DNA of 64,000 nucleotides from Anthoceros angustus (lineage: Eukaryota; Plantae; Anthocerotophyta), in assembly GCA_010909165.1 (NCBI GenBank), contig VJWM01000118.1, positions 496,001-560,000 on the forward strand, written 5' to 3'. A program made the translations under genes and the position numbers. The notes below the pieces were generated by a model, which made no database searches, had not been told where the DNA came from, and saw nothing but the letters and a program-made list of their open reading frames with translations. How positions within the stretch are numbered: the first letter of the stretch is position 1; each line of letters starts with the position of its first letter. Of the stretch, positions 32,501-58,230 are shown piece after piece.

Positions 32501-35500
32501 TTGGACGCTGCTGAAGGAGCCGGAGGAAGTCCGGAGCCTGGACGGAGGTATCCGATCCGCCGGATACCGAGTAAGGGCGGTAGCCCGGATCATTGTCCAT
32601 TGAACTCGCCACCAAGGTGGATCACCTTGGTGATAACTCGCTGGTATTCTCGCATGCGCCCAATGGGAAGAGAGCGACTGGGAAGGATTATCTTCGCCTG
32701 CTCAGAGGCACGCTAAGGAGCGAGAAGCCTCATCGGACCCATACACCGATTCATGTATGGGGACATTTCGAGCTCTCAAGGAGGGAGAGCTTGAGCGGCG
32801 CCCAAGGGCCGGAGGCCCCGCCAAGTAGAGCGTGCAAGGGCGCCTGAGGTGGGGGTCGCCCTTCAAGACCAAGCGACTCGGAGGAGGACGATCGAGGATT
32901 CCTGACTCATACGCCGAGCGAACCCCTCACCACCTGTGGAAGTTTGGGAGGCGATTCCCCTTCCTCCTTTTGGTGCCCCTCCGCCAAGCAGTGAGGGAGC
33001 GATGCCGGAGGGCGCTCGGCCCAGACTGACAACAGCCAACAACGACCGAGCCCCGACGAACTCAACGGGAGCCAAGAGGCGGAAGACGGTGCCGCTTACC
33101 AACGCAAAGACCTCGAGGTGCCAGACTTACCCCGCCCACGGAGTGGCAAGAGGTCAAGAGGCGTAAGGAGGGCGAAAGGGACGTGGCCCAAGGAGCAGGA
33201 GGTCACCGCAGCCCCACCTCGAGCCGGGCCTGCCCCCTGTGAAGGGGCAAAAGAGCTTGCTCCTGACCCCTCACCTCCTCCGAGCCTGGAGAAAGAGGGC
33301 ACAAAGGAGTTAGAGGCCAAGAGGGCCAAGAGGGTGAGACTGACACCACTGTGACCGAGGGTCCCGATTAGGTCCGAGAACCCACCGACTTACTCCGGAT
33401 CGCGGTATGGAGGTCCTTGGCGGACCGAGAAATGCCGGCCCCACTACGGACTTTGTGGGGCCTCACGGCCGTGGAAGAAACACGGCGAGTCTGCTACCGC
33501 CATGGACGGAATGCTTTGGGGTCTCGTGGTACAATGAGAAGACCTGAAGTGGAGGCCACCCGAGGAGGATGGTGGAACCCAAGAGCAAAGGAAAAGGCGG
33601 AGTCCCTCGCCGGATCGAGGAAGGGAAACGCCGGTGGCGGAGCGCGAGGCCGGTTCAGATCAAGGTTCTTCACCGCGGCAACAAGCAAGCTCAGAGGCCC
33701 AAGCGGCGGAGGACCTTGCAAAGGGGGGAAGCGCAGCAGAGGCTAAGAGGCCCCGCACAAGCAGAGAGCTCGACCGCGGAGGCGGCCCGGAGAGCGGCCA
33801 AGTGGGCGAGGCCTGTAAAGGCGGCGAAGGAGCGGGGGCAAGAGCGACCGGATCACTACAGACGTGATCGAACCGTGGAGAGAGTCACACCGAGGCTACT
33901 CGCCGTGACAAAGCATGGAGATGGAGGCAAGACTCGGGAGATAGAGGATCTCCAGTGCAAGGGGAGGTAGAGGAGGCGCAGCAGATGGAGGATGAAGGAC
34001 ACTGGAGCTACAACCCAAGATGCGCCGGAGCAGCAGTGATTCTCAACGAGAGAATCCACGACTCGAGCACAAACAGAGCAGCCCGCCCGTCTCAAGACGG
34101 AGGAAAATCGCGACTATCCAAGGAGTTGGACGCTGCTGCTGCTGAGGAAGTCCCGAGCCTGGACGGAGGTATCGATCACCGGAGAGGGAGCGAGCTAAAG
34201 GCCGTAATGAACGGAGGAGCGAGCACCGAAGTGGGGAAAAGAAGCCGTCCGTCCGAAAGGCGGAAGGGAACGCGCGAAGGCGGGCGGCGGAGGAAACGAC
34301 GGAGCGAGAAAGTGAGCGGGTGCAACAGAGGTGACCGAGGCCTCCGAGAGCGCCCCGGCCCCACCACAACTGGCAGGAGAGGTGGCCCAACAAGCCGGCA
34401 AAAGACGCCCTAACACTTATGGCGGAGGGAGTATCGGCTCCGCACACGTGGAAGAGGCAATTCAACAAGTCGATCTGACTTTGCCTATTACCACGCCGAG
34501 CCCTCGCGAGAAGCCTCGACGGCCGCCGACGGACGGACCGGAAGGCTCAAGGAGATGAAGGCCACGGGACAAAGACAGGACCCTAGTGGCCCCTGCTTGG
34601 AGATGACGGAGCGAGAGGAGCAACCGGAGGAGCGAACGAGGGAGCGGATGCGATCGAGGTAAGCACCCCGACCTCACCATGGAAGGAGGGGCCAACGGAG
34701 AGCCATCGGGCGATCGGGAACATGGGAGGACTTGAGGGAGAGCCACGGAGGAGTCCCGTGAGGGAGGAAACCCGGTGGGCGTGAGTCCGGACTTTGTCCG
34801 ACCCAGGGAGGCCGGACCAAGTCCGACCAAGTCCGGACTCAAGTCCGGACAGAATAAGTCCGACTCAAGTCCGACCAAGTCCGGACTTTGTCCGGACCCG
34901 AGGTCCGGACCCGAGGTCCGGACCCTGAGACAAGGTCGGACCTAGCCACGACCTGTGAATAAGCCGGACTCAAGTTCGTGAGTCGAGACAGACCTCGAGG
35001 ACCGCGGGCAAGAAGGAGGAGCCCCTTCGACTTACGCTTAGGGGAGCCGATAGCCGGTGGCCCCACCGCCAAGGACCTGTGGAGGGGCCAGGGAGGATGA
35101 CGCCGTGGTAACGGCGGTTGTCGACCGCCAGAGCCCAACCCGGCTGTGATTCCGGGAGAGGAGGGGCCCGCCTCACGGATCATCCGATTGGGTGCACCAC
35201 AACCGCCTGACGGGATTGGACCACCCATTCCGAGGCCTGTGACCTTCCCACACAAGGCGAGATAGGGGATAGGGGTAGGCGTCGATTAGGGTATACCGAG
35301 CTATCACCGTAATAGGGGTGTAAAGACGCCACCTTGGGCGCAGATAAGAGGGCCGAGGTCGCCTAGTAAAGCATCTTTCTTGGTGTTGATGCCGCGCCTT
35401 GCACCTTTGTGAGTCTTCTTGCTAACGTGAGTCCCGAGTCACCGAAAGGTGCACGATACCCGGGAGATTGATCAAGGTCCCGTGACGGACTTAACGCTGT

Positions 35501-35919
35501 GTGTGTGCAGGAAGGGTGATCGGTGATCCGTGCTCGTCCGAGCCGCGTCCGACACCGAACGGACTGAACGTGAGCCGAGGAACTCCGGAGGTGTCGGACG
35601 AGAGGCCCGCGAACGACGGAGGAGGTCCGGATCACAGAACCGCTTTTTTCTAAGATCAAGAGTGTAGCGTGAGAGGAGAGAGGAAAGGATGATGCGTGAG
35701 GATGTATGTGAACGATACGGACGCCAACGGGTCAAACGCTTGGCCATACCGCAGACGGTGAACGCTAGAGTAGTTAGGAGTATGTGTGTTGAGACCGAAC
35801 GAGCGCTAAGGACGGTAAGAATCACCAAACGCTAAACGGGCCTATCATTCCCTTGGGAACGGACTTCTTCCTACAACGACACGGATTGGCGCGGCCGGCT
35901 ATCGAAAAGTCCCGCCACA
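26524..35919 (+). repeat. LTR1, internally rearranged and expanded to ~9.4 kb
   Basis: Starts TGTGGGCTATGCAC after the TSD, ends GCCACA before the PBS; LTR segments restart at ~27550, 27811, 27945, 30108 and 32549. Confidence 0.85.
34785..34943. repeat. Degenerate GTCCGGAC-core tandem array inside the LTR (also ~46121-46250 and ~56055-56147)
   Basis: Seven perfect GTCCGGAC plus GTCCGAC/GTCGGAC variants at ~10-13 bp spacing. Confidence 0.85.
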
Positions 35920-38900
35920 TTTTGGCGCCGGGAATGAAATCGGTGGTGCCGCAGCGCGCCCTTAGGAAGAGAAGGTAAGTGAATGCGTGGCGGTCGAGCG
36001 ACGGTCAAGAGTGAACCGCCGGAGGATCGGACGTGGTCACCTCGCTGCTCTCCGAGCCGTGAGAGGGAGAGACGCCAAACCCAACGAGAGCACCGCCGAT
36101 CGAGGAGGGAGAACGTGGTCGAATTGTCGGACCAAGACGAGTACGGGTACGAGGGACGCCAACGGAAGAAGGTAGGACCCACGCCTAACCCATCGATGGC
36201 GCAGCCATGGCCCCTACCTCGACCAAACAAGCGACTCCATATTCGGAGGAAGAAGGAGCGGATGCGAGACCTTTGTGGAGGACTTCGTGTCCAAAGCCAA
36301 CTTCAACGGAGAGGGAGTCGACGAGCTCATCCAAATTTTCCAAGGGGTTCTCCGAGGACAGCTCAATGGTATCGGAGAAAGTACCGACCACCGGAGAATG
36401 CCCCACCCGCCTCGCTTGAAGCTTTGAAAATGCCTTCTTAGAACGGTTTCGAGGATCGACCAGTGAGGGGTATGTATTATCAAAGTTGGAAAATCAAGCG
36501 AGGAAGAAGGAGAAGCCGGGCTCAGACATCGAGCGGTTCTATGCCCGAGGATCGGCATCCAACCCATACCACGATGCAAGCGGTGGACGGTTCGCGCCGG
36601 TCTAGCCAAACCCATGGCTGCACGCCGCCGCCGAGAAGGACGTGGGCAAGGCGGTCGAGCGGCCAAAAACTACGAGGAATCGCTACATCGAGGATAAAGA
36701 AATCCGCTCAAGGAGGCAAGAAGAAGAAGAAGAAACGGGTTCGGGACTGAGGAGGAAGAGTCTGAGGAGGAGGAAGACCAATCGGAGGTGTCTCGGAGGA
36801 GGAGCCGTCCAAGAAGAGACGGAGGTCTCTAGCGAGGAAGAGTATCCCGCAAGAAGAAGAGCAAGAAGGCCCGCTAAAAGAAGAGGAGGTAAGAAGGAGG
36901 TGGTGACACCAAGTCGTCCGAGAAGCTCCACGACCCGACTCCCTCAAAGGAGGTAGCAGTCCGGGAGGACGGAAAAGTGATAAAGAGAGTAGAGGACCGC
37001 GATAAACCGTGTTAAGGACCGAGAGCGCGGAAAACACCGACTACGATTGTGTGCCGTGTGCCGAACACGCCATTCGAATCCAACCGCCTCAAGGCCGGTG
37101 CATCAAGTGGACTACGAATACGAGGAGGAGGCCGAGGAGCAATGGGAAGAGGCCTATCGCATGTGAAGCCCCTCCGGGCCGCGATATCCCAAAACCATGT
37201 ATCCGCCAACCGGAGGTCCGTCAATACAACGAGCCCCACCGATGCAAAGACCGCATGGGAGCCCTTCGTATCCTCCGACGGCCGTGGTCTTGGAATCGGA
37301 ATCTCGCCATTACTCCAACGCGTGTCCGCACTCCAACGAGGCGGGGTAATGGGGACTTCGAGCGGCCGGTGGCGATCGCAAGGTGGGCATATGACAGCAA
37401 GACGCTATGTCCCAACCCCGCAAGGACGTACGATATGCCACACCAAGCGGAGAACCCGACCACCAACGCCACCTCCTAAGACTACTGGACGGCAAGTCAA
37501 GATGCTCACATGGAGTGGGAAGAGATTCCCAGGTACGCGAGATGGAAAAGAACAAGAAGGTACGGTGGGGTGTCGAAAGGAAGGGAGTGGGAAATCTTGA
37601 GGTGTCTACTGTAGGAAGGAAGGAGCGACGAGAAAGGCGCCATTGAAGAAGAACAAGATCGAGGAAGCCACGGACGCCGAGGAAGGCAATCAAACGGAAA
37701 TACCAGCAGAGGATCCGACCGATGAAGGAGGGCTGACGGCAGCCTCCCGAGGGATTACCCAAGGAAGTTCTCCGACAGATGTGGAGAAGGGAACGTGCCT
37801 CCCGCGACGGCCGACGTTAGCCACCGGACGTAGTCCGGAGGTGACCGAGATGTTGCAGGAGGAAATGCGCAAGCATCCGGAGAATACCGTAACAAGTGAC
37901 CCGGGAGAGGATGAGGACGCAGCAGATCCTCGATTGGGGTAGAAGCCTCGCCTTTAATGTGGCGGACGATGATGAATCGCCAGCACCTTGTGTCCTTTCG
38001 ACACCGCCGAGGATAACCCAAATACCGCAAGAGGTCCGCTGGGCCGTTAGGGAAACCCACCATGAGCACCAAAGCCGTGAAGGGTAGCAGTGGAAGTGAG
38101 GGTGGTGTCCCATACGGACCTGTGGGCGCCAGTGGTACAAGTGGAGATTGGATGTATCATCAAGGATGTACCGCTGGACACGGGTCCGAGTCAACCTCAT
38201 CACCAAGCCACGGCACGAAAATTGGGCTTCACATCCTTCAACCTCAACGAAGACTCGAGAATGGCGTATATGTCAAGAAGAGATCCGGGGAGTTAACCGA
38301 GTCTTGGCCACCATAGCCGTGCACCCTACAAACCGGATTTTGTTGTGATCAAACCGGCCGGACCATTAGGGTATGAGGTGTTGCTGGGCGGCCATGGTGG
38401 GTTGGCCTGCAAAGCTACACTTTGGAAGGAAGGAGATTCACTTCAAGCCGGTGGATGGGACCCTAAGTAGAAGGGAGGGTTGCTATCACCGGAGCAAGGA
38501 CACCTATTGTGGGAAACCGTGAGCACTACCGAAGGGTATACCTGGAGGACTCCACGGATAACAAGATAGTTCCGAGGAGGCGACTTTCGCCAAGATCCGC
38601 CGGTCCGAGGAGGAGATGGACTACCGCGGATGCCTTTGGCGGAAGTGATTGATTGTTTTAGTAAACGCCACAACGGGCCGGAGGAAGGAAGTGAAGAGGA
38701 GGTCGGACCAGACAAGGGGAGACAACAAGAGTCGGACCAAGGAAAAGCGGACATCAAGGAGTAACACGATTCACCTCCGACGAGCTCTTCGAGAATGGGG
38801 ATGCGAGAGGACGATCCCCGAGAGGAGGACGAGGGGTTTGACGCAGCGAGGCAAAGACGGAACGGAGACGGTGAACCCGGACGACGTGGAAGAAGTGGAG

Positions 38901-41900
38901 GTCCGCCAGCAAATTCTCAAGTTTAAGAAAGGCATGCCTCCGGACCAAGGAAGGACTAAAGCCTGGGGAGTTTTATGGTGTTCGCCTTCAAGGTCACGAC
39001 ATGAAGGGCATTCAAGAAGTGGGAGAGCATAAGATCGATTTGAAGCCGTGAGCGGTGCCACCGAATCCGACAATACAAGCTCAACCCCAAGTATTCGATC
39101 AAGGTGAAGGAGGTCCTTGATAAGTACCGGAGGCAGACATCATTTTCCCCATCACAGCCGAGTGGGTCGCTATGTGGTGGTTCCCAAGAAACAACCAGAC
39201 AAATTCGGTATGCCAAGATTGGAGGAAGCTCAACGAACGGAGAAGGACCACTTCCGATGCCATTCAGACGACATTTTGGACAAGGTGGTCGGACGGACTA
39301 CTTACTCCTTCCCGGATGGCTACTCCGGATATAACCAATTGCACCTAAGGGAGTCGGACCAAGGAAAAGCGGACATCAAGGAGTAACACGATTCACCTCC
39401 GACGAGCTCTTCAGAATGGGGATGCGAGAGGACGATCCCGAGAGGAGGAGGGGTTTGACGCAATGAGGCAAAGACGGAACGGAGACGGTGAACCCGACGA
39501 CGGAAGAAGTGGAGGTCCGCCAGCAAATTCTCAAGTTTAAGAAAGGCATGCCTCCTGACCAAGGAAGGACTAAAGCCTGGGGAGTTTTATGAGGTGTTCG
39601 CCAAGGTCACGACATGAAGGGCATTCAAGAAGTGGGAGAGCATAAGATCGATTTGAAGCCGTGAGCGTGCCACCAATCCGACAATACAAGCTCAACCCCA
39701 AGTATTCGATCAAGGTGAAGGAGGTCCTTGATAAGTACCGGAGGCGACATCATTTTCCCCATCGTCAACAGCCGAGTGGGTCGCGATTGTGGTGGTTCCC
39801 AAGAAACAACCAGACAAATTCGGGTATGCCAAGATTGAGGAAGCTCAACGCCGAACGGAGAAGGACCACTTCCGATGCCATTCAGACGACATTTTGGACA
39901 AGGTGGTCGGACGGACTACTTACTCCTTCCCGGATGGCTACTCCGGATATAACCAATTGCACCTAAGGAGTTTGACCGACAAGACGACCTTCACTACGGA
40001 GTGGGGTACGCTTTGCCTACAAGAGAAGTGCCTTTGGGATGACCGAGCGCCTGTGGTCGCTCATGCGTATGGTGACCAACGCCTTCCGTGACTTCCGAGG
40101 GACTTCATGGAGATATTCTGGATGATTTTGTGTGCATGGGGAGCAGGACAAACACCTTGGGCATCTAAGAAGGTGCTTGAGCGCCGGAGACTCAATTGAG
40201 CCTACACCCGAGAAATGCTACTTTGGAATGACGGAGGGAATCTTGTTGACATCGGTGGCGCTGGAATCGAGGTGGACCAGACAAGGTCCGGTCATCCGCC
40301 TCCACCGACGAACCTAAAGGAGCCGAGAGGTTTCGAATGGTGGGATACTACCGGGTTTATTAAGGACTTTAAAGAGGGCGCTAAGTTGATGTAACCACTG
40401 CAAGGAGGAGGTTTGGACCGTCACGTGAGCGAGAGGAGGCCTTCGGATTTACGTAACACCTTGGTAAGCGCACGGTTCTAAGAGGACCGGATCGAGCAGA
40501 AATTTCATGTGTATGTAGATGTGTCCGCTTTGCTATCGGAGTAGTGCCGAGCCAAGGACGACAAGCGGGATTATCCCGATACTACCGGACGAGACCACCA
40601 CGCGAACGAAAATACACAACTACAGAGGCCAAGCCGGGTATGGTATATCGTCAAGAAATTCGACACTACCTACTACCCTGAGTTTGTGTTCTATGTAGAC
40701 CACTTTGCGTCAAGCATCCGTGAATAAGACGGACCGTCCGGACGGATAGCAAGGTGGATATTGTTGCTGCAGGAGTTCACGTCAAGTGGAAACAAGACAA
40801 GGGAGGCAAGACCAAAATGCGATTTCGTCACGATTGAAAACAGAGGTGTTGAGAGATCGTGAAGATGCCCCGGATGAGACATTGGTTGCCGCAGAAAAGT
40901 ACAACCGAGGAGCCCAGACCGAACCCCAAGCTACGAGAACTGGCAGCCTTAGTGAAGCGGAGAAGGGAGGGCCGGCCGTCCGACCCACGAAGAAATAGAG
41001 CGGTACTGGGAATGGAGCTTCAAAATCACTGTGGGAGAGGAGGCATTCGTGCACTATGCTCGACCCTTCGTAATGTACAACGGTGTGTGTTCAAATTAGG
41101 GCCGGACGGAGTAGAACGAAGGTACTTGCAACCGCAGAGGGAGCGGCCAAGGGAATGCACGAAGGATTGGGGTGGACACTACGCAAAGACAGTCACCACC
41201 AAAAGATTTTGAAGCGGATCGGTGGCCAACAATGTATGGGGACACCCACCGCTTAGAAGAAGTGTGATGCTTGTCCCGATCGGAAAGCCAACCCCGACGA
41301 CACATGGCCGCTAGTACCGATATTGGCACCGCACCTTCGAAAAGTGGGTATTGACTTTGTTGGACCTATACACCACGACAAGACACACACAAAGGAGATA
41401 CATCCCGTGGCAACGGACTCGCACTGTGGGTAGAGGCGGTGGCGACAAGAACGGACTCGCAAATACCGTGGCCAAATTCTGACGAGAACATCATAACCCG
41501 ACGGATGTCCGCCGCAGCTTGGTAAGTGATAGGGGAACCCATTTCCTTAATGATGTGGTGGCCGCCATGACGGAGTATTTCGCATCAATCATCGCAAGAC
41601 GGCACCCTACAATCCTAAGGCCAATGGGTCGAGAGAAGACAAATGGGCTCATCCGCAGGATCCTCAATAAACTCAGGAACTACGCCCATGATCGGATAGC
41701 CGCCATCCGTGACTGTATGCCCGGACAGAGAAGACAAATGGGCTCATCCGCAGGATCCCGAATAAACTCACGTGAACTACGCCCATGACTGGATACCAAG
41801 CCATCCGTGACTGTATGCCCGGACAGCAGAAGGTGACCACACAACGGACCCTTACTTGACCTACGACACTCCCGTAATGCCGTGAGAGTTTGAAGTGCCC

Positions 41901-42878
41901 ACTTTTCGAGTAATGATGGAAGGAGACCGATAAGAGGAAAGCCATGAGCGACTCTTGGGGTTTGCAAAGACAGAGGAGGAAGAAGTGTGATGCTTGTCAC
42001 CGGATCGGAAAGCCAACCCCGACGACACAAAGGCCGCTAGTACCGATATTGGCACCGCACCTTCAAAAGTGGGTATTGACTTTGTTGGACCCACGACAAG
42101 ACACACACAAAGGAGATACATCCCGTGGCAACGGACCACCGCACTGTGGGTAGAGGTATGACAAGAACGGACTCGCAAATACCGTGGCCAAATTCTCGTG
42201 ACGAGAACATCATAACCCGACGGATGTCCGCTTGGTAAGTGATAGGGGAACCCATTTCCTTAATGATGTGGTGGCCGCCATGACGGAGTATTTCGCATCA
42301 ATCATCGCAAGACGGCACCCTACAATCCTAAGGCCAATGGGTCGACAGAGAAGACAAATGGGCTCATCCGCAGGATCTGAATAAACTCAAAGTGAACTAC
42401 GCCCATGATCGGGATACCAAGGCCATCCGACTGTATGCCCGGACAGCAGAAGGTGACCACACAACGGACCCTTACTTGACCTACGACACTCCCGTAATGC
42501 CGTGAGAGTTTGAAGTGCCCACTTTTCGAGTAATGATGGAAGGAGACCGATAAGAGGAAAGCCACCGAGCGACTCTTGGGGTTTGCAAGACACAGAGGAT
42601 GGAAGAAGCAAGAGATGGTGCAAAACCAAAAGATTTGGCACGATCGCCGATCGGGAATCGGAGTATGTAAAGGAAGGGACCCGCCCTCCTTTATGATAGT
42701 CGTTACATGCATTTTCCGTGCAAACTTCACCGAGATGGATGGGTCCGTAAGTGGTGCAAGTATATGACAACGGGTCCGGCTCCACGGCCTAGATGGAGAG
42801 TCGCTGCCCACTGAAACGGGGCGGGTGAAGAAGTATCATGCTTAGTGTTGGCGAGACGCCAATGATGAGAAGGGAGTA
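35920..42878 (+). mobile_element. Internal region 1: gag-PR-RT-RH-INT with local duplications and indels
   Basis: PBS 35923-35933; protease DTG 38177-38185; RT VVVPKK..GYSGYNQ..EIFLDD; INT KWGIDFVGP; ends KKYHA* at 42846; PPT GAGAAGGGAG 42867-42876. Confidence 0.9.
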
Positions 42879-45800
42879 TGTGGGCTATGCACTTCGGGAG
42901 GGGAAATAAGTAGGGTTTCGCTTTTTAGGATTGAAGGATAAATAAGGCGGAAAAGGAGGAATAAATTGGGGTAGCGCCGGACGAGGCTCGGAGTATACTC
43001 CGACTGGAGTGAACAACGGACCCCGACCACTATGGCAAGCTCCTACCACGGAGTAACGGATAAGTCCGGAACCCACCCAGTCAAAATAGGATAAGTACGC
43101 CTGTGAAAGTAACCCAGGAGCGAGGCGTGAGGATGCAGGCGGCGCCACGGACGGCCCCGAGTGGAGGTCGGGCATGGAGGTCAGACTGAATGCAGGCCGC
43201 AGGCGTGTATTCACGCCCGCGCGCGGCGGGGCCGCAGGCAAGCGAGGGTCGAGTAAGCCATGCACTCGCGCATGACAACGGAGGCGCCTTCCGCCAGCAT
43301 TTTCCACAAGCGCGCCAAGGAGGGAGGTCTGCCGCAGCCTCCGCAATCCTCACAGCCTTGCGCCCGCAATCCGGCTCTCGCGCTTTTGGGCGCCTTAGAG
43401 CGTGGCGCTCCAAGGTTGGAGCAACGAACGCGCGAAGGAGGAACATCGTGCCGCCGACTCCGGCCTAGCAGAACAAGAGGAGAGGAGAAAGCAATGGCAC
43501 CCAAAAGCCGACGGAAACTGGGAGCCATGGACCTCGTGGAGCGCAACATTGTGACCCGCGCTATCCGGACTTCCGGCCGGAGGAAGCAGGGAATTGGTGA
43601 GGCATCCGGACGTGTTCCAAATGGTCTCGACCTTGACAACGCTACCTAGTCCGGAGTTTGCCCGAAGATGCCGGGCGGCGATCAACAAGGAGGTCCGATC
43701 CAAGAACCTCCGGAGGACCCGAGGCGATGGACCTTGAGGTCCCGAGGATGGCCTACAACCGCCAAGGAGGAAGAAGGGGCGTGGAGCGGCGGCGGAAGAT
43801 AGGGCCGCCGCGGCCGAGGCTCGAACGCAGCGACAACCAACGGATGGTTGATATCCGATCCGCCGGATACGAGTAAGGGCGGTAGCCCGGATCATTGTCC
43901 ATTGAACCGCCACCAAGGTGGATCACCTTGGTGATAACCTCGCTGGTATTCTCGCATGCGCCCAATGGGGAAGAGAGCGGACGGGGAAGGATTATCTTCG
44001 CCCGCCTGGGAGGCACGAAGCTAAGGAGCGAAGCCTCATCGATCGACCCCATACCGATTCATGTATGGGGACATTTCGAGCTCAAGGAGGGAGAGCTTGA
44101 GCGGGCGCCCGGGCCGGAGGCCCCGCTGTAAGAGCGTGCAAGGGCGCCTGAGGTGGGGGTCGCCTTCAAGACCAAGCGGACTCGGGAGGAGGACGATCGA
44201 GGGATTCCGACTCCATACGCCGAGCGAACCCCTCACCACCTGGGAAGTTTGGGAGGCGATTCCCCTTCCTCCTTTTGGTGCCCCTCCGAGCGGCAGGGAG
44301 GGAGATGCCGGAGGGCGCGGCCCGGCACCCAGACAATGCCAACAACCACGACGCCGAGCCCCGACGAACTGGGAGCCAAGAGGCGGAAGACGGTGCCGCT
44401 TACCAACGCAAAGACCTCGGTGCCGTACTTACCCCGCCCACGGAGTGGCAAGAGGTCAAGAGGCGTGAAGGAGGGCGAAGGGACGTGGCCCAAGGAGCAG
44501 GAGGTCACCGCGCAGCCCCACCTCGAGCCGGTCCTGCCCCCGATGTGAAGGGGCAAAAGAGCCCCTGACCCCTCACCTCCTCCGAGCCCCGGAGAAAGAG
44601 GGCACAAAGGAGTTAGAGGCCAAGAGGGCCAAGAGGGTGAGACTCCTCACCACTGTGACCCGAGGGTCCCGATTAGGTCCGAGAACCCACCGACTTACTC
44701 CGGATCAAGGTATGGAGGTCCTTGATCGAGAAATGCCGGCTCCCACTACGGACTTTGTGGGGCCTCACCGTGGGCCGTGGAAGAAACACGGCGAGTCTAC
44801 ATGGACGGAATGCTTTGGGGTCTCTGTGGTACATGGAGAAGACCTGTGAAGTGGAGGCCACCCGAGGAGGATGGTGGAACCCAAGAGCAAGTGAAGGCGG
44901 CCGAGGGGCAAAGGAAAGGCGGAGTCCCTCGCCGGATCGAGGAAGGGAAACGCCGGTGGCGAGCGAGGCCCCAAGTTCACAGACTGGTTAAGGTTCTTCA
45001 CAGGCGTCAAGCAAGCCTGGGAGGCCCAAGCGGGCGGAGGACCTTGCAGAGGGGAAGCGCAGCAGAGGCGGAAGAGGCCCGGCACAAGCAGAGAGCTCGG
45101 GACTGGCGGAGGCGGCCCGCCAGAAAGGCGGTAAAGGCGCGGGCGAGCCCCGGGTCAGGTGAAGAGCGACCGGATCACGGACGTGATCGAACCGTGGAGA
45201 GAGACAGAAAATGAGGCTAACTGGCCGCACAAAGGCGGGTGGAGGGTGGAGGCCAAGACTGGGAGATAGAGGATCTCCGAGCACACCGCAGGAGGTAGAA
45301 GGAGGCGGCAGCAGATGGAGGGAAGGACACGCTGAGCTACAACCCAAGATGCGTCGGAGCAGCAGTGATTCTCAACGAGAATCCACGACCGAGCACGAAA
45401 TAGAGTAGCCTCTCCGTCAAGACGGAGGAAAATCGGCGACTATCCAAGGAGTTGGACGCTGCCAGGGCGAGCCGGAGGAAGTCCGAGTCGGGACGGAGGT
45501 ATCCGATCACCGGAGAGGGAGTCTGAGCTAAAGGCCGAATGAACGGAGGAGCGCGAGCACGGAAGTAAAAGAAGCCGCCGTCCACGAGAAAGGCGGAAGG
45601 GAACGCCGCGCTATGGCGGTAAGTCGGCAATGGAGAACGACGGAGCCGAGCAGGAGCAACGGGCAGCAGGAGGTGACCGAGGCCGCCTGTAGCCTCGCGT
45701 GATACACCCGCCCACACAACCGGGCAGAGAGGTGGCCCAACAAGCCGGCAAAGACGCCAACACTTATGGCGGAGGGAGTATCGGTGCTCCGCACACGTGG

Positions 45801-47222
45801 AAGAGGCAAAGTCGATCGATTTGCCTTTACCACGCCGAGCTCCCGGCGTGAAGCCTCGACTCCGCAGACGGACGGACCCCGGAAGGCTCAAGGAGATGAA
45901 GGCCACGGGACAAAGACAGGGACCCTAGTGGCCTGCTTTGGAGATGACGGAGCGCGGAGAGAGGAGCAACCGGAGGAGCGAACGAGGGAGCGGATGCGAT
46001 CGAGGTAAGCACCCCGCACCTCACCATGGAAGGAGGGCCAAGGCGAGTCACGGGCGATCGGGAACATGGAAGGACTTGAGGAGAGCCACGGAGGAGTCCC
46101 GTGAGGGAGGAAACCTGGTGAGGACTTTGTCCGACCCGAGGGAGGCGACCAAGTCCGACCAATAAGTCCGACTCAAGTCCGGAAGTCCGACCAAGTCCTG
46201 AATAAGTCCGACCTAGAGACCGAGGTCCGGACCCAGACAAGGTCGGACCTAGCCGGGCCGGACCTGTGAATAAGCCGGACTCAAGTTCGTGAGTCGAGAC
46301 AGACCTCGAGGAGGGACGGGCAAGAAGGAGGAGCCCCTTCGACTTACGCTTAGGGGAGCCGATAGTGGTGGCCCCACCGCGGGGACCTGTGGAGGCCTGG
46401 GAGGATGACGTGCGGGGCTTGTCACCGCCGAGCCCAACCCGGCTGTGATTCCGGGAGAGGAGGGGCCCGCCTCACGGATCATCCGATTGCACCACAACCG
46501 CTGACGGGGATTGACCACCCATTCCGAGGGGGCCTGTGACCTTCCCACTAAGGGAGATAGGGGGATAGGATGGTAGGCCGATTAGGGTATACCGAGGCTA
46601 TCACCGTAATAGGGGTGTAATAAAGACGCCACCTTGGGCGCAGATAAGAGGGCCGAGTTCTAGTAAAGCATCTTTCTCTTGGTGTTGATGCCGTTTGCGC
46701 ACCTTGTGAGTCTTCTTGCTAACGTGAGTCCCGAGTCACCGAAAGGTGCACGGCCCGGGAGATTGATCAAGGTCCCGTGACGGACTTAACGCGCTGTGGT
46801 GTGTGTGTGGAAGGGTGACCGTGATCCGCGGTTCCCGAGCCGCGGTCCAACACCGACCCGACTGAACGCGTGAGCCGGAGGAACTCGGAGGTGTGTAGAG
46901 CCCGGACGGAGAGGCCCTGAACGACGAGGAGGTCCGATCACAGAATCCGCTTTTTCTAAGATCAAGAGGTAGTGAGAGGAGAGAGGAAAGGATCGATGCG
47001 AGGATGGTGAACGATACGGACGCAACGGGTCTAAACGCTTGGCCATACCGGCCTCAGACGGTGAACGCTGTGAGTAGTTAGGAGTATGTGTGTTGACCGA
47101 ACGAGCTAAGGACGGTAAGAATCACCGAACGCGTAAACGGGCCTATCATTCCCTTGGGAACGGACTTCTTCCTACAACGACACGGATTGTGCGCGCCTGG
47201 CCATCAGAAAAGTCCCGCCACA
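42879..47222 (+). repeat. LTR2 (4344 bp)
   Basis: Begins TGTGGGC right after the PPT; ends GCCACA before the PBS. Confidence 0.92.
43032..46008 (+). CDS. Putative LTR-encoded ORF (~990 codons, frameshifted in this sequence); counterpart in LTR3 52919-55937; LTR1 start 26682, stop ~34661
   Basis: Conserved CACTATGGC start and ..ERMRSR-TAA end in all LTRs; charged, protein-like + strand fragments between them (ELLKEGELER, EVEEAQQMEDEG, VEEAIQQVDL). Confidence 0.55.
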
Positions 47223-50200
47223 TTTTTGGCGCCTGCCGGGAATGAAATCGTCTGGTGCCGCAGTGCGCCCTTAGGAAGAGAAGGTAAGTGAATGCGTGGC
47301 CGAGCGGTCAAGAGGAACCGTCAGAGGATCGACGTGGTCACCTCGCTGCCTCCGAGGGAGAGGAGAGACGCCAAACCCAACGAGAGCACCGCCGATCGAG
47401 GAGGGAGAACGTGGTCGAATTGGACCAAGACGAGTACGGGTACAAGGGACGCTAAGAAGGTAGGATGCCCCACGCCTAACCCACCGATGGCGCACCATGG
47501 CCCCTACCGACCAAACAAGCGACTCCATATTCGGAGGAAGAAGGAGCGGATGCGAGACCTTTGTGGAGGACTGTGTCCAAAGCCAACTTCAACGGAGAGG
47601 AGCCGACGCACCATCCAGCCAAGGGGTTCTCCGAGGACACCGCTCAATGGTATCGGAGAAAGTACCGACCACCGGAGAATGCCCCACCCGCCTCGCTTGA
47701 AGCTTTGAAAATGCCTTCTTAGAACGGTTTCGAGGGATCACCAGAGGGTATGTATTATCAAAGTTGGAAAATCAAGCGAGGAAGAAGGAGAAGCCGGGCT
47801 CAGACATCGAGCGGTTCTATGCCCGAGGATCGGCATCCAACCCATACCACGATGGTTCGCGCCGGCCTCTAGCCAAACCCATGGCTGTGCACGCCCCGCC
47901 GCCGAGAAGGACGGGGCAAGGCCGAGCGGCCGAAAACTACGAGGAATCGCTACATCGAGGATAAAGAAATCCGCCAAGGAGGCAAGAAGAAGAAGAAGAA
48001 ACGGGGTTCGACTGAGGAGGAAGAGTCTTCGAGGAGGAGGAAGACCAATCGGAGGTGTCTCGGAGGAGGAGCAGTCCAAGAAGAGACGGAGGTCTCTAGC
48101 GAGGAAGAGTATCCCGCAAGAAGAAGAGCAAGAAAGCCCCAAAAAGAAGTGGGTAAGAAGGAGGTGGTGACACCACCGTCCGAGAAGCCCGCCGGACCCG
48201 ACTCCCTCAAAGGAGGTAGCAGTCCGCGGAGGACCGGAAAAAGTGATAAAGAGAGTAGAGGACCCGCGATAAACTGTTAAGGGAGAGCGCGGAAAACACC
48301 ACTACGAACGCATCTCGTGCCGCAAGAACACGCCATTCGTCCAACCGCCTCAAGGCCGGTGCAAGTGGACTACGAATACGAGGAGGAGGCCGAGGAGCAA
48401 TGGGAAGAGGCCTATCGTGCATGTGAAGCCCCTCCGGGCCGCGATATCCCAAAACCATGTATCCGCCAACCGAGGTCCAATACAACGAGCCCCACCGATG
48501 CAAAGACCGCATGGGAGCCCTTCGTATCCTCCGTGACGCGGGTCTCTGGAACCGCGAATCTCGCCATTACTCCAACGCTGTCCGCACTCAACGAGGTGGT
48601 AATGGGGACTTCGAGCGTGGTGGCGATCGGCCGCATATGGCGTGCAAGACGCTATGTCCCAACCCCGACAAGGACGGTACGATATGCCACACCAAGCGGA
48701 GAACTCGACCACCAACGCCACCTCCTAAGACTGCTACTGACAAGTCAAGATGCTGGCGGAGGGAAGAGATTCTGAGGTACGCGAGATGGAAAAGAACAAG
48801 AAGGTACGGGGGTGTCGAAAGGAAGGGAGTCAGTGGAAATCTTGGAGGTGTCTACTCAGTCAAGGAAGGAGCGACGAGAAAGGCGCCAGCTTGAAGAAGA
48901 ACAAGATCGAGGAAGGCCGGACGCCGAGGAAGGCAATCAAACAAATACCAGCAGAGGATCCGACCGATGAAGGAGGGCTGGACGGGCAGCCGGAGGGATT
49001 ACCCAAGGAAGTTCTCCGCAGATGTGAGAAGGAACGGTGCCTCCCGCGACGGCCGACGTTAGCTTACCGGACGAGTCCGGAGGTGACCGAGATGTTGCAG
49101 GAGGAAATGCGCAAGCATCCGGAATATAACACGGTGATCCGGGAGAGGATGAGGACGCAGCAGGATCCTCGATTGGGGTAGAAGCCTCGCCTTTAATGTG
49201 GCGGACCGATGATGAATCAGCACCTGTGTCCTTTCGACACCGAGGGATAACCCAAAATACCGACAAGAGGTCCGTCGGGTTAGGGAAACCCAGCGGAGCA
49301 CCAAAGCCGTGAAGGGTAGCAAAGGAAGTGAGGGTGGTGTCCCATACGACCTGGGGCCAGTGGTACAAGTGGAGATTTGGATGTATCATCAAGATGTACC
49401 GCTGGACACGGGTCCGAGTCAACCTCATCACCGAAGCCACAAAATTGGGCTTCACATCCTTCAACCTCAACGAAGACTCGAGAATGGCGTATATGTCAAG
49501 AAGAGATCCGCGGGGAGTTAACCGAGTCTTGGCCACCATAGCCGCACCTACAAACCGGATTTTGTTGTGATCAAACCGCCGGACCATTAGGGTATGAGGT
49601 GTTGCTGGCCATGGCTGGGGTTGGCCTGCATAAAGCTACACTTTGGAAGGAAGGAGATTCACTTCAAGCCGGGACTGGGACCCTAAGGTGCGAGAAGGGA
49701 GGTTGCTATCACCGGAGCAAGGACACCTATTGTGGGGAAACCGTGAGCACTACCGGCGACCTCACGGGAGGACTAATCGGGCGATTTAACAAGATAGCTC
49801 CGAGGAGGCGACTTTCGCCAAGATCCGCCGGTCCGAGGAGGAGATGGACTACGCGGATGCCTTTGGCGAAGTGGTTGATTGTTTTCGAGTAAACGCCACA
49901 ACGGGCCGGAGGAAGGAAGTGAAGAGGAGGTCGGACAAGACAAGGGGAGACAAGAGTCGGACCAAGGAAAAGCGGACATCGGAGTAACACGATTCACCTC
50001 CGACGAGCTCAGAATGGGGATGCGAGAGGACGATCCCGAGTGGAGGACGAGGGTTTGGACGCGAGGCAAAGACGGAACGGAGACGTGAACCCGGACGACG
50101 TGGAAGAAGTGGAGGTCCGGCCGGGCAAATTCAAGTTTAAGAAAGGCATCCCGGACAAGGAAGGACTAAAGCACTGGGGAGTTTTATGGTGTTCGCCTTC

Positions 50201-52765
50201 AAGGTCACGGACATGAAGGGCATTCAAGAAGTGGGAGAGCATAAGATCGATTTGAAGCCGAGCTGCCTCAATCCGACAATACAAGCTCAACCCCAAGTAT
50301 TCGATCAAGGTGAAGGAGGTCCTTGATAAGTACCGAGGCAGACATCATTTTCCCCATCGTCAGCGAGTGGGTCGCTACGATTGTGGTGGTTCCCAAGAAA
50401 CACAGACAAATTGGTATGCCAAGATTGAGGAAGCTCAACGCAAGAACGGAGAAGGACCACTTCCGATGCCATTCAGACGACATTTTGGACAAGGTGGTCG
50501 GACGGACTACTTACTCCTTCCTCGGATGGCTACTCCGGATACAACCAATTGCACCTAAGGGAGTGACCGGGACAAGACGACCTTCACTGAGGGGGGCACG
50601 CTTGCCTACAAGAGAAGTGCCTTTGGGATGACCGAGCGCCTGTGGTCGCTCATGCGTATGGTGACCAACGCCTTCCGTGACTTCGAGGGACTTCATGGAG
50701 ATATTCCCGGATGATTTTTGTGTGCATGGGGAGCAGGACAAACACCTTGGACATCTAAGAAGGTGCTTGAGCGCCGGAGACTCAATTGAGCCTACACCCG
50801 AGAAATGCTACTTTGGAATGACGGAGGGAATCTTGTCGACATCGGTGCGGCTGGAATCGAGGTGGACCAGACAAGGTCCGGTCATCCAGCCTCCACCACG
50901 AACCTAAAGGAGCCGAGAGGTTTCGAATGGTGGGATACTACCGGTTTATTAAGGACTTTAAGAGGGCTGCTAAGTTGATGTAATCATCATGAAGGAGGAG
51001 GTTTGGACCCGGTGGAGCGAGAGGAGGCCTTCGGATTTACGTAACACCTTGGTAAGCGCACGGTTCTAAGAGGACCGGATCGAGCAAGAAATTTCATGTG
51101 TATGTAGATGTCCGCTTGCTATCGGAGTAGTGCCGAGCCGGGACGACAAGCGGGATTATCCCGTATACTCTGGACGGCAGCTCACCAGCGAAAATACACA
51201 ACCAGAGCCAAGCACCGGGTATGGTATATGCCGTCAAGAAATTCGACACTACCGCTACCCAAAGGAGTTTGTGTTCTATGTAGACCACTTTGCGTCAAGC
51301 ATCCGGTGAATAAGGCGGACCGTCCGGACGGATAGCAAGGTGGATATTGTTGCCGCAGGAGTTCACGTCAAGTGGAAACAAGACAAGGGAGGCAAGACCA
51401 AAATGCATTTTCGTCACGATTGAAAACAGAAAGGTGTTGAGAGATCGTGAAGATGCTCCGGATGAGACATTGGTTGCCGCAGAAAAGTACAACCGAGGAG
51501 CCCACCGACCGAACCCCAAGCTACGAGAACGGCAGCCTTAGTGTAAGCGGAGAAGGAGGGTCCGCCGTCCGACCCACGAAGAAATAGAGCGGTACCTCCG
51601 GGAATGGAGCTTCCAAAATCGACTGTGATGAGGGAGGCATTCGCACTATGCTCGACCCTTCGTAATGTACAACGGTGTGTGTTCAAATTAGGGCCTGACG
51701 GAGTAGAACGAAGGTACTTACAACCCAGACAGGAGCTCGCCGGAATGCACGAAGGATTGGGGAGGACACTACGCAAAGACAGTCACCACCAAAAGATTTT
51801 GAAGCGGATACCGTGGCCAACAATGTATGGGGACACCCACCGCTTAGAAGAAGTGTGATGCTTGTCACGGATCGGAAAGCCAACCCCGACGACACAAAGG
51901 GCCGCTAGTACCGATATTGGCACCGCACCTTCAAAAGTGGGTATTGACTTTGTTGGACCCATATACCACGACAAGACACACACAAAGGAGATACATCCCG
52001 TGGCAACGACCATCGCACTGTGGGTAGAGGCGGCGACAAGAACGGACTCGCAAATACTGCGGGCCAAATTCGACGAGAACATCATAACCCGCGGATGTCC
52101 GCAGCTTGGTAAGTGATAGGGGAACCCATTTCCTTAATGATGTGGTGGCCGCCATGACGGAGTATTTCGCATCAATCATCGCAAGACGGCACCCTACAAT
52201 CCTAAGGCCAATGGGTGACAGAAGACAAATGGGCTCATCCGCAGGATCTCGAATAAACTCACAGGAACTACGCCCATGATCGGATACCAAGTCGCCATCC
52301 GTGACTGTATGCCCGGACAGCAGAAGGTGACCACACAACGGACCCCTTACTTGACCTACTGACACTCTCCGTAATGCCGAGAGTTTGAAGTGCCCACTTT
52401 TCGAGTAATGATGGAAGGAGACGATGAAGAGGAAAGCCACCGAGCGACTCTTGGGGTTTGCAAAGACAGAGGACAGAAGAAGCTCACCAAGATGCGCTTG
52501 GTGCAAAACCAACAAAGATTTGGCACGATCGATCGCGAATCGTGAGTATGTAAAGGGGGACCCGCCCTCCTTTATGATAGTCGCATGCATTTTCCGTGCA
52601 AACTTCACCGAGATGGATGGGTCCGTACCAAGTGGTGCAAGTATATGACAACGGGTCCGTCGCCGGCGCCTAGATGGAGAGTCGCTGCCCACTCGGGTGA
52701 ACGGGTGGCGGGTGAAGAAGTATCATGCTTAGTGTTGGCGAGACGCCAATGATGAGAAGGGAGTA
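47223..52765 (+). mobile_element. Internal region 2: gag-PR-RT-RH-INT (5543 bp), indel-rich
   Basis: PBS 47227-47241; DTG 49405-49413; RT, RNase H and INT motifs as in region 1; PPT 52754-52763. Confidence 0.9.
47227..47241 (+). promoter_or_regulatory. Primer binding site, tRNA-Asp type
   Basis: TGGCGCCTGCCGGGA versus the Athila/tRNA-Asp complement TGGCGCCGTTGCCGGGGA; shorter variant at 35923. Confidence 0.75.
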
Positions 52766-55700
52766 TGTGGGCTATGCACTCGGGAGTTAAGAAATAAGTA
52801 GGGTTTCGCTTTTTAGGATTGAAGGATAAATAAGGCGAAAAGGAGGAATAAATTGGGGTAGCGCCGGACGAGGCTCGGAGTATACTCCGGACTGGAGTGA
52901 ACAACGGACCCGCACACTATGGCAAGCTCGGACTACGCCGAGTAACGGATAAGTCCGAACCCACCTGTGTCAAAATAGGATAAGTACGCCTGTGAAAGTA
53001 ACCTAGGAGCGAGGCGTGAGGATGACGAGGCGCCACGTGGACGGCCCCGAGTGGAGGTCGGGCATGCGAGGTCGACCGTAACTGCCGAGGCCGCAGGCAG
53101 TATTCACGCCCGCGATCGCGCGCGCGTAAGGCCGCAGTAAGCAAGCGAGGGTCGAGTAAGCCATGCACCGCGCTACGGACAACGAAGAGGCGCCTTCCGC
53201 CCAGTTACTTCCACAAGCGCGAGGAGGGAGGTCCGGCAGCCTCCACCCACATTTGCGCCCGCAATCCGGCTCTGGCGCTATCTTTTGGGCGCCCACTTAG
53301 AGCGCTCACAAGGTTGGAGCGGTGACGAAGGAGGAACATCGCCGACTCGCCAGCCACAAAGAACAAGAGGAGGAGAAGCAATGGCACCCAAAAGCCGGGC
53401 GGAGTCTGGGAGCCATGGACCGTGGAGCGCAACATTGTGACCCGCTATCCGGACTTCGGGCCCCGGCCGGAGGAAGCAGGGAATTGGTGGGAAGTGGCAT
53501 CTGGACGTGTTCCAAATGGTCCGGACCTTGACAACGCACTAGTCCGGAGTTTGCCCGAAGATGTGGCGGCGATCAACAAGGAGGTCCGATCCAAGAACCT
53601 CCGGAGGACCCGAGGCGATGGACCTTGAGGTCCCGAGGATGGCCTACAATCAAGGAGGAAGAAGGGGCGTGGTGCCGAGCCCCTTAAGGCGGAAGATAGG
53701 GCCACATGCCGAGGCTCGAACGCAGGACAACCAACGGATGGTTGATATCCGATCCGCCGGATCGAGTAAGGGCGGTAGCCCGGATCATTGTCCATTGAAC
53801 TCGCCACCAAGGTGGATCACCTTGGTGATAACTGCTGGTATTCTCGCATGCGCCCAGGGGAAGAGAGCGGACGGGAAGGATTATCTCGCCTGCTCACCGA
53901 GGCACGCAAGCTAAGGAGCGAGAAGCCTCGCCATCGGTGACCCATACGATTCATGTATGGGGACATTTCGAGCTCCTCAAGGAGGGAGAGCTTGAACGGG
54001 CGCCTAAGGGCCGGAGGCCCCGCCAAGTAGAGCGTGCAAGGGCGCCTGAGGTGGGGGTCGCCCTTCAAGACCAAGCGGACTCGGGAGGAGGACGATCGAG
54101 GATTCCTGACCCCATGCCCTGAGCGAACCCCTCACCACCTGTGGAAGTTTGGGAGGAGATTCTTCCTCCTTTTGGTGCCCTCCTGAGCAGACAGTGAGGG
54201 AGCCGATGCCGAGGCGGCCCGCACCGGCAGACAACAGCCAACAACCACGACGGCCGCCGAGCCCCGACGAACTCAACGGGAGCCAAGAAGACGGCCGCTT
54301 ACCAACGCACTGGGTGCCGGACTTACCCCGCCCACGGAGTGGCAAGAGGTCAAGAGGCGGAGGAAAAGGACGTGGCCCAAGGAGCTGGAGGTCACCGCGC
54401 AGCCCCACCTCGAGCCTGCCTCCCCCGATGTGAAGGGGCAAAGAGCTTGCTCCGGACCCCTCACCTCCTCCGAGCCCCTGTGAGAAAGAGGGCACAAAGG
54501 AGTTAGAGGCCAAGAGGGCCAAGAGGGTGAGACTCTGACCACCACTGTGACCCGAGGGTCCCGATTAGGTCCGAGAACCCCCGACCCCGATCTGGGTGGA
54601 GGTCCTTGGCGGACCGAGAAATGCCGGCCCCACTACGGACTTTGTGGGGGCCTCACCACGGCCGTGGAAGAAACACGGCGAAGTCCTGCTACCGCCATGG
54701 ACGGAATGCTTTGGGGTCTCTGGTTGGGAGAAGACCTGTGAAGTGGAGGCCACCCGAGGAGGATGGTGGAACCCAAGAGCAAGTGAAGGCGGCCGAGGGC
54801 AAAGGAAAGGCGGAGTCCCTCGCCGGATCGAGGAAGGGAAACGCCGGTGGCGGAGCGCGAGGCCCGGCGGTTCAAGCAGACAAGGTTCTTCACCACAAAC
54901 AAGCAAGCAAGCCTGGGAGGCCCAAGCGCCGGGCGGAGGACCTTGCAGAGGGGAAGCGCAGCAGAGGCGGAAGAGGCCCGGCACGCAGAGAGCTCGGGAC
55001 TGGCGGAGGCGGCCCGGCCAGAGCAAGGGGCGGGGCGGCCTGTAAAGGCGGCGAAGGAGTCAAGCCGCAAAGAGCGACCGGATCACTACAGACGTGATCG
55101 GGCCGGTGGAGAGTCACAGCAGCAATGAGGTTAACTCAAGGCCGTGACAAAGGGCTATGGAGTGCAAGGGCCAAAGGAGGAGATGGAGGCCAAGACTCGG
55201 GAGATAGGAGATCTCCGAGTACACAGGAAGTAGAGGAGGCAGCAGATGGAGGATGAAGGACACGCTGAGCTACAACTCCAAGATGCGCGGAGCAGTGATT
55301 CTCAACGAGAGAATCCACGACTCGAGCACGAAATAGAGTGCCCAGCCGCTCAAGACGGAGGAAAATCGGCGACTATCCAAGGAGTTGGACGCTGCTGTGC
55401 CATGAGCCGGAGGAAGTCCGAGCCTGGACGGAGGTACCGATGAGAGGGAGTCGGAGCTAAAGGCCGTAATGAACGGAGCGCGAGCACCGGAAGAAAAGAA
55501 GCCGGTCCACCGAGAAAGGCGGAAGGGAACGCCGCGCTATGGCGGTAAGCCGCAATGGAGAAAAACGACGGAGCCGGAGTGAGCAACAAAGGCACTGGAG
55601 GTGACCGAGGCCGCCTCGCGTGATATGCCGGCCCACCACAACCGGGCAGAGAGGTGGCCCAACAAGCGCAAAGACGACCCCTAACACTTATGGCGGAGGG

Positions 55701-57152: not shown

Positions 57153-58230
57153 GCTATCTTCTCCGGCAACGTTCTTGGGTGATTGGGCCCTCTCCGCGCT
57201 TGCTTTGGCCTCCCGATTCATCCATCTAGACAGGCCCTTTCTAGTGGATTTTTTTGGGAGGGAGCTTTCCCTCTCCAAGTATCTTTGATTCTGGCTAGGG
57301 ATATGATATCGGCTAATGCGCGGTGCAGCTTCTCTCCCTTCACGACATTCATCACCGATGGTTTCAGGGGGTTGCAGGCTTCCCTGCTTGAGAAGCAGCT
57401 TGGTTAGGCATTCTAGTGCGTCCTCACAGACCCCTCCATCCCTAGGTCCATAAGAGCTTGACTTCACTCTTACTCTGGGAAGGGCGCAGACACTTGGCTA
57501 CTGGCTCATCCATGTATTCGGGGTTTTCACAACGCACCAACCACCTTCTTTACTGCGATGCGCTTCCATCTAAGCTTGCACCAGCTTGTGGCTTCTTCTC
57601 TCCTTACTTACGAATGCAGATCTACCCTCGATGACTCTAGGATACACCTTGCTTGTTGCCCCCATGGGGGTTATCGCATTTCCACCCATGATGCCATCAG
57701 CGATGTCATGTTCGCCATTGCTTGCGAAAGTGGCTACATGGCCTGGAGGGAGCGGGGCCACACTCTTCATATAGGTCATCAATCGTATCGACTTGTATCT
57801 CATTCGGACGACTGTGCTCGCAGTGGTTGCACGCAGTCAATCGACCGTGACGACCATTTTGCAGGTTATCACTAACCATCCAAGTTGCATGTTAGAGCTA
57901 TCAAAGTCGAAATGTAAGCGGATGCGCACCAATTCATTCCGCTCGTCCTTGAAACATATGAGGCGTTGGCTAAGGACTTCGATACATTTCTCAAGTCCTT
58001 GCCAAGGCCTATCATGCCCGCAGGCACAGTGCGGGGCTGTCCCTTTCCTATTTCATGACATTCTTCAGACAACGAGTGTCAACTGCTCTTCAATGAGCTC
58101 TCTCTACGGCGATCATCCACAAAGTAGTGACAGCAAGTGACGCATCCTTCTCTATCTTCTTGGTTTGTAGGCCATTTTCTCTTCCCACGGGTCCCTTTCT
58201 GTTGTCCTCTGCTGGATGCGCTTCTCCCAT
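57153..58230 (+). mobile_element. Non-LTR retrotransposon, CRE/RLE-type, downstream part (RT thumb, zinc knuckle, endonuclease region)
   Basis: Continues LSLELS|SPATFLGDWAL across the TSD; ECRSTLDDSRIHLACCPHGG..THDAISD; FIPLVLETY; FRQRVSTALQ. Confidence 0.85.

Follow-up and report, generated by a model that had tools for sequence, protein, structure and literature searches.

A giant long terminal repeat in an Anthoceros angustus Ty3/gypsy-type retrotransposon that may contain an accessory gene

Why does a plant retrotransposon carry a long terminal repeat (LTR) of 4.35 kb, and could most of that repeat be a gene? The question is raised by a Ty3/gypsy-type element in a 64,000-nt stretch of Anthoceros angustus DNA (GenBank assembly GCA_010909165.1, contig VJWM01000118.1, positions 496,001 to 560,000 of the forward strand), which we call the window and within which all coordinates are numbered. 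Plant LTRs are treated as non-coding. An earlier note on this DNA, made from the letters of the window, nevertheless proposed that the LTR at 42879 to 47222 encodes a protein. Our analysis indicates that the region from 43032 to 46008 is, with high probability, of coding origin. A more specific explanation, to which we give an even chance, is that the first 3.1 kb of the 4.35-kb LTR is a sense-strand accessory gene of about 1000 codons, expressed from a spliced RNA and specifying a soluble, probably nuclear coiled-coil protein. Whether live copies hold this gene as one unbroken frame seems to us evenly poised.

Limits and architecture of the LTR

All the hallmarks of an LTR retrotransposon were found at this locus, namely TG...CA direct terminal repeats, a primer-binding site (PBS), a polypurine tract (PPT), and a target-site duplication (TSD). 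The window contains a single insertion (26524 to 57152) with the order LTR-internal-LTR-internal-LTR and one 5-bp TSD (GCTAT) around the whole structure. All three LTR units open with TGTGGGCTATGCAC (at 26524, 42879, and 52766) and close with GCCACA (at 35919, 47222, and 57152); a purine tract lies immediately 5' of 42879 and of 52766, and a TGGCGCC-type PBS follows the LTR ends at 35919 and 47222 after 3 to 4 nt. The two PBS copies differ from each other by indels. The 4.35-kb unit has both host junctions at its outer ends, which makes it the LTR by definition; as these junctions also bear the TSD, we rejected an assembly artefact as the source of the long LTR. The features of the element are as follows.

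26519 to 26523, + strand: left target-site duplication, GCTAT
26524 to 35919, + strand: first LTR (A), 9396 nt, with internal restarts at 27550, 27945, 30108, and 32549
35920 to 42878, + strand: first internal region, with PBS at 35923, donor motif at 35973, gag-pol, and pol stop at 42845
42867 to 42878, + strand: polypurine tract before LTR B
42879 to 47222, + strand: middle LTR (B), 4344 nt, TG...CA with a short terminal inverted repeat
47227 to 47240, + strand: PBS, 4 nt beyond the end of LTR B
47487 to 52732, + strand: gag-pol (protease, reverse transcriptase [RT], RNase H, and integrase; broken fragments, read by eye)
52754 to 52765, + strand: polypurine tract before LTR C
52766 to 57152, + strand: last LTR (C), 4387 nt, in which the putative gene occupies 52919 to 55937
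57153 to 57157, + strand: right target-site duplication, GCTAT

Several structural claims of the earlier note were confirmed. The PPT, PBS, terminal motifs, and TSD by which it had fixed the LTR limits were all found, and the end of pol, put at about 30 nt before the LTR, lies 33 nt before both LTR B and LTR C. All three LTRs share the ATG it described (26682, 43032, and 52919, with further instances at 27698 and 28093) and the ERMRSR-stop end (~34662, 46008, and 55937). The LTR length of 4.35 kb holds for B and C but not for A, whose 9396 nt include four restarts and probably owe their length to re-duplication in the assembly.

The first pol contains back-jumps at 39351, 41729, and 41979, and several of the restarts in LTR A and pol sit at short shared words. 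In plants, tandems with a common internal LTR are frequent (PMC11899658); misassembly may contribute to the two-internal-region tandem found here.

Coding signal in the first 3 kb

The feature at issue is the following.

43032 to 46008, + strand: putative gene in U3 (the unique 3' part of the LTR), 2977 nt from ATG to TAA, with indels that interrupt it in every copy

Several comparisons bear on its coding nature. Three-base periodicity reached z = 2.6 in both LTR B and LTR C, against -1.1 to 0.6 in the LTR tails, 5.8 in gag, and 4.2 in pol. Stops on the + strand were depleted in the region (z = -2.1 and -2.2) and enriched in the tails (1.7 to 2.9). We also examined verbatim blocks, defined as at least 24 nt common to at least two copies, of which the region holds 50, covering 1941 of its 2977 nt. 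In none of these blocks are all three + frames closed, whereas the tail has 2 such blocks among 15 and the stretch upstream of the ATG has 1 among 3; the mean number of open frames per block is 2.52 in the region, to be compared with 1.40.

A further signal came from a frameshift-tolerant codon-phase model trained only on the element's own gag-pol and judged against shuffles that preserve dinucleotide content in 200-nt windows. Five copies of the region gave z values of 6.5, 5.4, 5.7, 8.0, and 5.5, while all five outside controls fell between 0.6 and 2.4. The signal is spread along the region, as all six of the 1-kb thirds that were scored gave z values of 2.9 to 5.5. The excess per kb was 15.5 to 18.9 on the + strand versus 7.3 to 9.5 on the - strand, a 2:1 ratio that is also seen in the host gene for protein disulfide isomerase (PDI). 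An antisense gene was therefore judged less likely, since host PDI, too, shows roughly half as much excess on the - strand as on the + strand.

A diverged relative of the element adds evidence at the protein level. A second run (X2, the RNA status of which is the tool's guess) covered 7 of 30 bins of the LTR and yielded two contigs of this relative, with matches confined to islands. Its 1635-nt contig is collinear with 44610 to 45458, and the first three islands, 218 and 121 nt apart, stand in one frame (ELEAKRAK, MDGMLWGL, and KAESLA). The nine codons before the first island read PSPMRRRAE in the relative and PSPVRKRAQ in a window frame; by eye, these 27 nt contain 8 differences, 5 of them in third positions, with 3 silent codons and 3 conservative replacements. 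The other contig, of 275 nt, matches 42940 to 42964 and 43149 to 43176, flanking the ATG. The earlier note's protein in U3 thus gains support for sense-strand coding from the statistics and from the diverged relative, but not as a single open frame.

The frame is broken in every copy. The distance from ATG to stop is 2977 nt in one LTR and 3019 nt in another, so "about 1000 codons" describes a distance and not a frame; the earlier note was right that an ATG and a stop lie about 3 kb apart, but no copy is open for more than 188 amino acids (aa). Gap events between copies number 4.3 to 8.6 per 100 nt, against substitutions of 1.5 to 6.3%, and gaps predominate in gag and pol just as they do in the LTR. 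Host genes, by contrast, are intact, with PDI unbroken over 533 codons. Contigs from a first short-read run (X1; 3244 contigs, 30 of 30 bins, word depth 103 to 7063) differ from the window LTR at 116 indel sites with a share of at least 30% (12 shown); this run is possibly from the same sample as the window and is not independent support for the element. The indel excess everywhere, the intact host genes, and the disagreement with X1 together indicate that the breaks are mostly assembly error in a high-copy repeat.

Such errors can be common to all copies, since the window copies break the frame before ELEAKRAK inside a block that is verbatim in at least three of them. This matters for the peptide that the earlier note had joined across indels, which is now partly doubtful: its RVRAVARII frame is closed by a stop within a 38-nt block (43870 to 43907) that is verbatim in at least three copy groups and in which the SKGGSPDHCPLN frame is the sole open one, though shared errors do occur.

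Homology searches neither identified the region nor showed it to be new. Pfam searches with sets of 30, 30, and 18 proteins (LTR, gag-pol, and host mixed; E up to 10) gave no relevant match for element fragments. Among LTR fragments there was no match to PF20167 or PF03078, including fragments that run through the Trp-containing segment described below in either candidate frame, and none to PF04195. Word-index searches, which cover longer proteins only, returned nothing for one LTR fragment, a 12-fragment LTR alignment, and one RT fragment. HMMER with 11 aligned fragments against 1.84 billion representatives found no true homologue; its sole match, a mussel Sushi-repeat protein, was rejected as false, as it has no tblastn match to the element. 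Two fragments found no usable match in the ESM Atlas, where recognition was low, and an RT fragment matched nothing meaningful among PDB sequences. Scans for related loci found none in viral contigs and none in genome contigs; one chance locus each in the metagenome and viral pattern scans was discarded, neither having a tblastx or blastn match to the element. Comparable searches with fragments of the element's RT, RNase H, and integrase likewise came back blank. Because these pol fragments failed the same kinds of search, the blanks show neither novelty nor absence. For the same reason the result is a weak negative for the Athila/Transposase_32 identity that the earlier note had suggested, which no search supported.

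The putative protein and its expression

Frames were chosen by eye from the verbatim blocks and fragments. Read in this way, the protein would have a low-complexity N terminus and a charged C terminus, with a second Trp-rich stretch, also seen by eye, after the basic clusters and before the long charged stretch. The parts that can be placed are these.

43870 to 44104, + strand: compact Trp-containing segment, the most hydrophobic part (PPRWITLVI ... GRIIF ... PIHVWGHFEL), with no family match
44371 to 44645, + strand: basic clusters KRRK and KRAKRVR, candidate nuclear localization signals (by eye; island conserved in the relative)
45000 to 45700, + strand: Glu/Lys/Arg/Ala-rich stretch, likely coiled coil (by eye)
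46146 to 46213, + strand: 10- to 18-nt tandem repeats after the stop

The earlier note saw no transmembrane segment, and this was borne out. Over all + frames of five copies, 19-residue hydropathy peaked at 0.74 to 1.08, compared with 1.71 for the host PDI signal peptide, although indels could hide a segment. The product is predicted to be a soluble coiled-coil protein, probably nuclear, and not an envelope. Tandem repeats of 10 to 21 nt also follow the stop at 34812 to 34925 and 56083 to 56127, and their copy number varies among the three LTRs. The supposed stop is overlapped at each of the three LTR ends by a donor-like AG/GTAAG (46003 to 46010, 34657, and 55932), and the true C terminus may be spliced on.

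For expression, two predicted splice sites are of interest.

42921 to 42929, + strand: predicted 3' splice acceptor, a T run followed by AG; found near every LTR start (26573, 27588, 27983, 42921, and 52809)
47282 to 47289, + strand: predicted 5' splice donor AG/GTAAGT, about 200 nt before the likely gag ATG (47487 or 47497)

Exact AGGTAAGT occurs three times in the 64 kb, two of them about 55 to 60 nt past the PBS-bearing LTR ends (35973 and 47282). The acceptor lies about 45 nt inside the LTR start and about 100 nt before the common ATG, with no ATG between. By a single-base model, a 9.9-kb unit would contain 0.16 donors and 0.08 acceptors by chance, so the enrichment is modest. As predicted from sequence, donor and acceptor sit where a subgenomic splice needs them. 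The 275-nt contig of the relative starts within about 1 base of the acceptor AG, which is a hint that spliced and unspliced forms merge there and only that, given a depth of 4 and the fact that contigs cannot show RNA ends. The word TAGGGTTT, which we take to be telo-box-like, stands at 42909 to 42916, just before the acceptor, in each LTR start. The non-coding 25 nt at 42940 to 42964, between acceptor and ATG, are identical in the diverged relative, and this suggests a conserved RNA or promoter signal.

The following model would connect these features. If the promoter lies in the last 0.6 to 1.2 kb of the LTR, as we infer, the region belongs to U3 and is at the 3' end of the genomic RNA. The gene would then occupy the position of the Athila env-like open reading frame (ORF) but downstream of the PPT, and reverse transcription would copy it into both LTRs. 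A transcript from the 5' LTR would be spliced from the donor after the PBS (47283) to the acceptor inside the 3' LTR (52816, the equivalent of 42928), and this would remove gag-pol, as happens in the subgenomic RNA of the Athila env-like ORF and in that of mouse mammary tumor virus (MMTV) sag. We put this predicted route at slightly less than an even chance. Upstream of the ATG, a 5' or solo LTR offers only 150 nt of the element, so expression would likely come from the 3' LTR of a full element. The earlier note had expected even solo LTRs to carry the gene; they would carry the frame but, without an upstream promoter and splice donor, likely would not express it.

In the nucleus, the protein would serve the element that encodes it, most likely by helping its transcription or countering its silencing; the short repeats that follow the stop would be candidate sites for binding. 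The suggestion of a nuclear role draws on the basic clusters, on the failure to find a membrane segment, and on parallels with proteins of additional ORFs (aORFs) that bear nuclear signals (PMC11728184, PMC11963269, PMC7264820), and we rate a nuclear regulator as somewhat less likely than not.

Several observations weigh against the accessory gene as we describe it. No + strand stop-to-stop frame exceeds 162 aa in LTR B or 188 aa in LTR C. One intergenic control reached z = 2.2 in the periodicity test. The five copies scored by the phase model belong to one family, are partly the same DNA, and are not independent. Training on host genes gave a model that missed the region (z = 0.2 to 1.2, compared with 4.3 for gag and 2.6 for pol), and in the gag-pol model the tail of LTR B itself scored 3.4 (4.2 after the repeats), with tails A and C at 0.9 to 1.4. 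The searches described above found no homologue of the LTR region. A transcript from the guessed promoter would meet five (LTR B) to seven (LTR A) ATGs before it reached the donor. The proposed function draws on composition and analogy only. Finally, the fourth island of the relative, in the coiled-coil part, is best read as TEENRRLSKELD, one base off the frame of the first three, and that frame meets a stop just past the fourth island in the contig. With three islands in frame and the fourth off it and followed by a stop, constraint at the protein level is supported, but not one clean frame.

Lineage, known systems, and competing explanations

The order of domains in pol reads as protease, RT, RNase H, and integrase (motifs in broken fragments, by eye; Pfam and PDB gave no support), and by eye there is no room in pol for an extra RNase H (aRH) or a chromodomain, in fragments too broken for profiles. 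Elements without either also include Tat Z1/Z2 of non-seed plants (PMC10508981, PMC13468544). The TSD measures 5 bp in 95% of Athila and 4 bp in Phygy and Selgy (PMC6317226), and the PBS lies a few nt beyond the LTR in Calypso and Diaspora (PMC1142308). The 5-bp TSD found here fits Athila and differs from the 4 bp of Phygy and Selgy. The extra ORF of Athila lies between pol and the PPT, and here only 33 nt separate the pol stop from the LTR. We take the Athila PBS to be complementary to tRNA-Asp; there is no host tRNA within the window. We therefore class the element as aRH-less and non-chromovirus-like, Athila-like but unproven as such, and it may belong to the aRH-less Tat Z1/Z2 lineage.

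The Athila env-like ORF2, ATHILA ORF-1 (PF03078), and Transposase_32 (PF20167), present for example in Athila4, Calypso, Bagy2, and sunflower Athila 14, resemble the gene proposed here in being sense extra ORFs downstream of pol in non-chromovirus-like elements with a 5-bp TSD. The Athila ORF2 RNA is spliced and polysome bound (PMC7197481), Bagy2 is spliced (PMC7264820), and nuclear signals occur in Athila and Tekay aORF proteins, including a Transposase_32 aORF (PMC11728184). Unlike those ORFs, the present frame lies wholly inside the LTR, with the PPT at most 33 nt after pol; it has no family match and no transmembrane segment and is about twice the length of the 487-aa sunflower protein.

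The region could be that Athila env-like (ATHILA/Transposase_32-type) ORF itself, placed in U3 after a new PPT arose upstream, with the same layout and splicing but from a known family. We consider this unlikely, though it is in keeping with the 5-bp TSD, the PBS offset, and a pol without room for an extra RNase H or chromodomain. The spacing of PPRWIT...GRIIF presumably resembles that of Athila ORF motifs. However, neither PF20167 nor PF03078 matched, the HMMER match was false, and the transmembrane segment is missing.

Other systems differ more. MMTV sag overlaps U3, lengthens the LTR, and is expressed from a spliced RNA (PMC9147501). MMTV is a retrovirus of vertebrates whose LTR measures about 1.3 kb, whereas a plant element is at issue here, with a 4.35-kb LTR and a 3-kb frame, and we claim no sequence relation. 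Human immunodeficiency virus nef is a further U3-overlapping accessory gene. Ogre, BAGY-1, and Retrosat2/RIRE3 have LTRs of 3.2 to >5 kb (PMC1142308, PMC3485330, PMC6317226), but their extra ORFs (ORF0 and the Ogre ORF) are internal and precede gag, and the excerpts describe no LTR gene. More generally, plants are known to have extra ORFs, and the LTRs of non-chromoviruses reach about 5 kb (PMC6317226, PMC3485330). The TRP28 proteins (PF04195) of Retand and Grande are proposed nuclear DNA-binding regulators beside short tandem repeats (PMC11963269, PMC7264820); unlike the present gene, theirs are antisense and internal, in aRH-bearing elements of flowering plants. Within the literature excerpts covered, with most subscription papers and element-level supplementary tables outside that scope, we found no plant LTR retrotransposon with a gene inside its LTR.

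It is improbable that the region derives from a captured gene or nested element and persists as a decaying relic, or as two shorter ORFs, only because LTRs are copied whole. Such a history would suit the lack of a long frame in every copy, the shifted frame and the stop that the relative's contig shows, a coding signal weaker than that of gag, and the AG/GTAAG at the supposed stop in all three ends (so that the end may differ). Against it stand the 50 verbatim blocks, none of them closed in all frames, a signal in all three kilobases, silent and conservative changes relative to the diverged relative, and high short-read depth over the whole region. That the 3 kb is merely non-coding, purine-rich U3, in which low T (12.5%) makes stops rare and fragments protein-like, is very improbable: the negative host-trained model, the score of the LTR B tail, and the LTRs of up to about 5 kb known in non-chromoviruses (PMC6317226) agree with it, but dinucleotide-preserving shuffles still leave z values of 5.4 to 8.0 with a 2:1 strand bias, and three islands 100 to 220 nt apart keep one frame in the diverged relative.

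Returning to the accessory gene, its broadest form would be that a land-plant Ty3/gypsy lineage moved its PPT upstream of a gene of about 1000 codons from an undescribed family, so that the gene lies in both LTRs and in every solo LTR, is expressed by splicing from PBS to U3, and acts as a nuclear self-activator or anti-silencing factor. Taken as a whole, this remains doubtful. If true, the gene would far exceed in length the U3 genes that the examined literature describes, and at least two diverged families of the same organism would carry it. It would mean that a PPT can shift across a whole gene, and one kind of giant LTR would be explained. Surveys of extra ORFs sort them by the side of the polyprotein, 5' or 3', on which they lie (PMC6317226, PMC7264820), and annotation pipelines that mask LTRs would miss accessory proteins of this kind. 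A gene in the env position without a membrane segment would also point to a regulator, with a bearing on what plant "env-like" ORFs do.

The element lies in DNA of a host plant with compact genes, including PDI, a C2-domain phospholipase D-like gene, and COR-A fragments. An intron-free PDI frame of 533 codons (59050 to 60651) begins 1.9 kb past the end of the element and is possibly a retrocopy. The phospholipase D-like gene with its C2 domain occupies 15625 to 19139, and at 3072 to 7480 a segment of about 2.2 kb is duplicated in direct tandem; its copies are 94% alike, and a COR-A (Roc-COR) coding fragment is present twice. By eye, the - strand shows two further features: at 20011 to 21193, a gene for a B-box-like zinc finger that includes a His run, and at 324 to 863, a fragment like the protease-RT linker of another Ty3/gypsy element.

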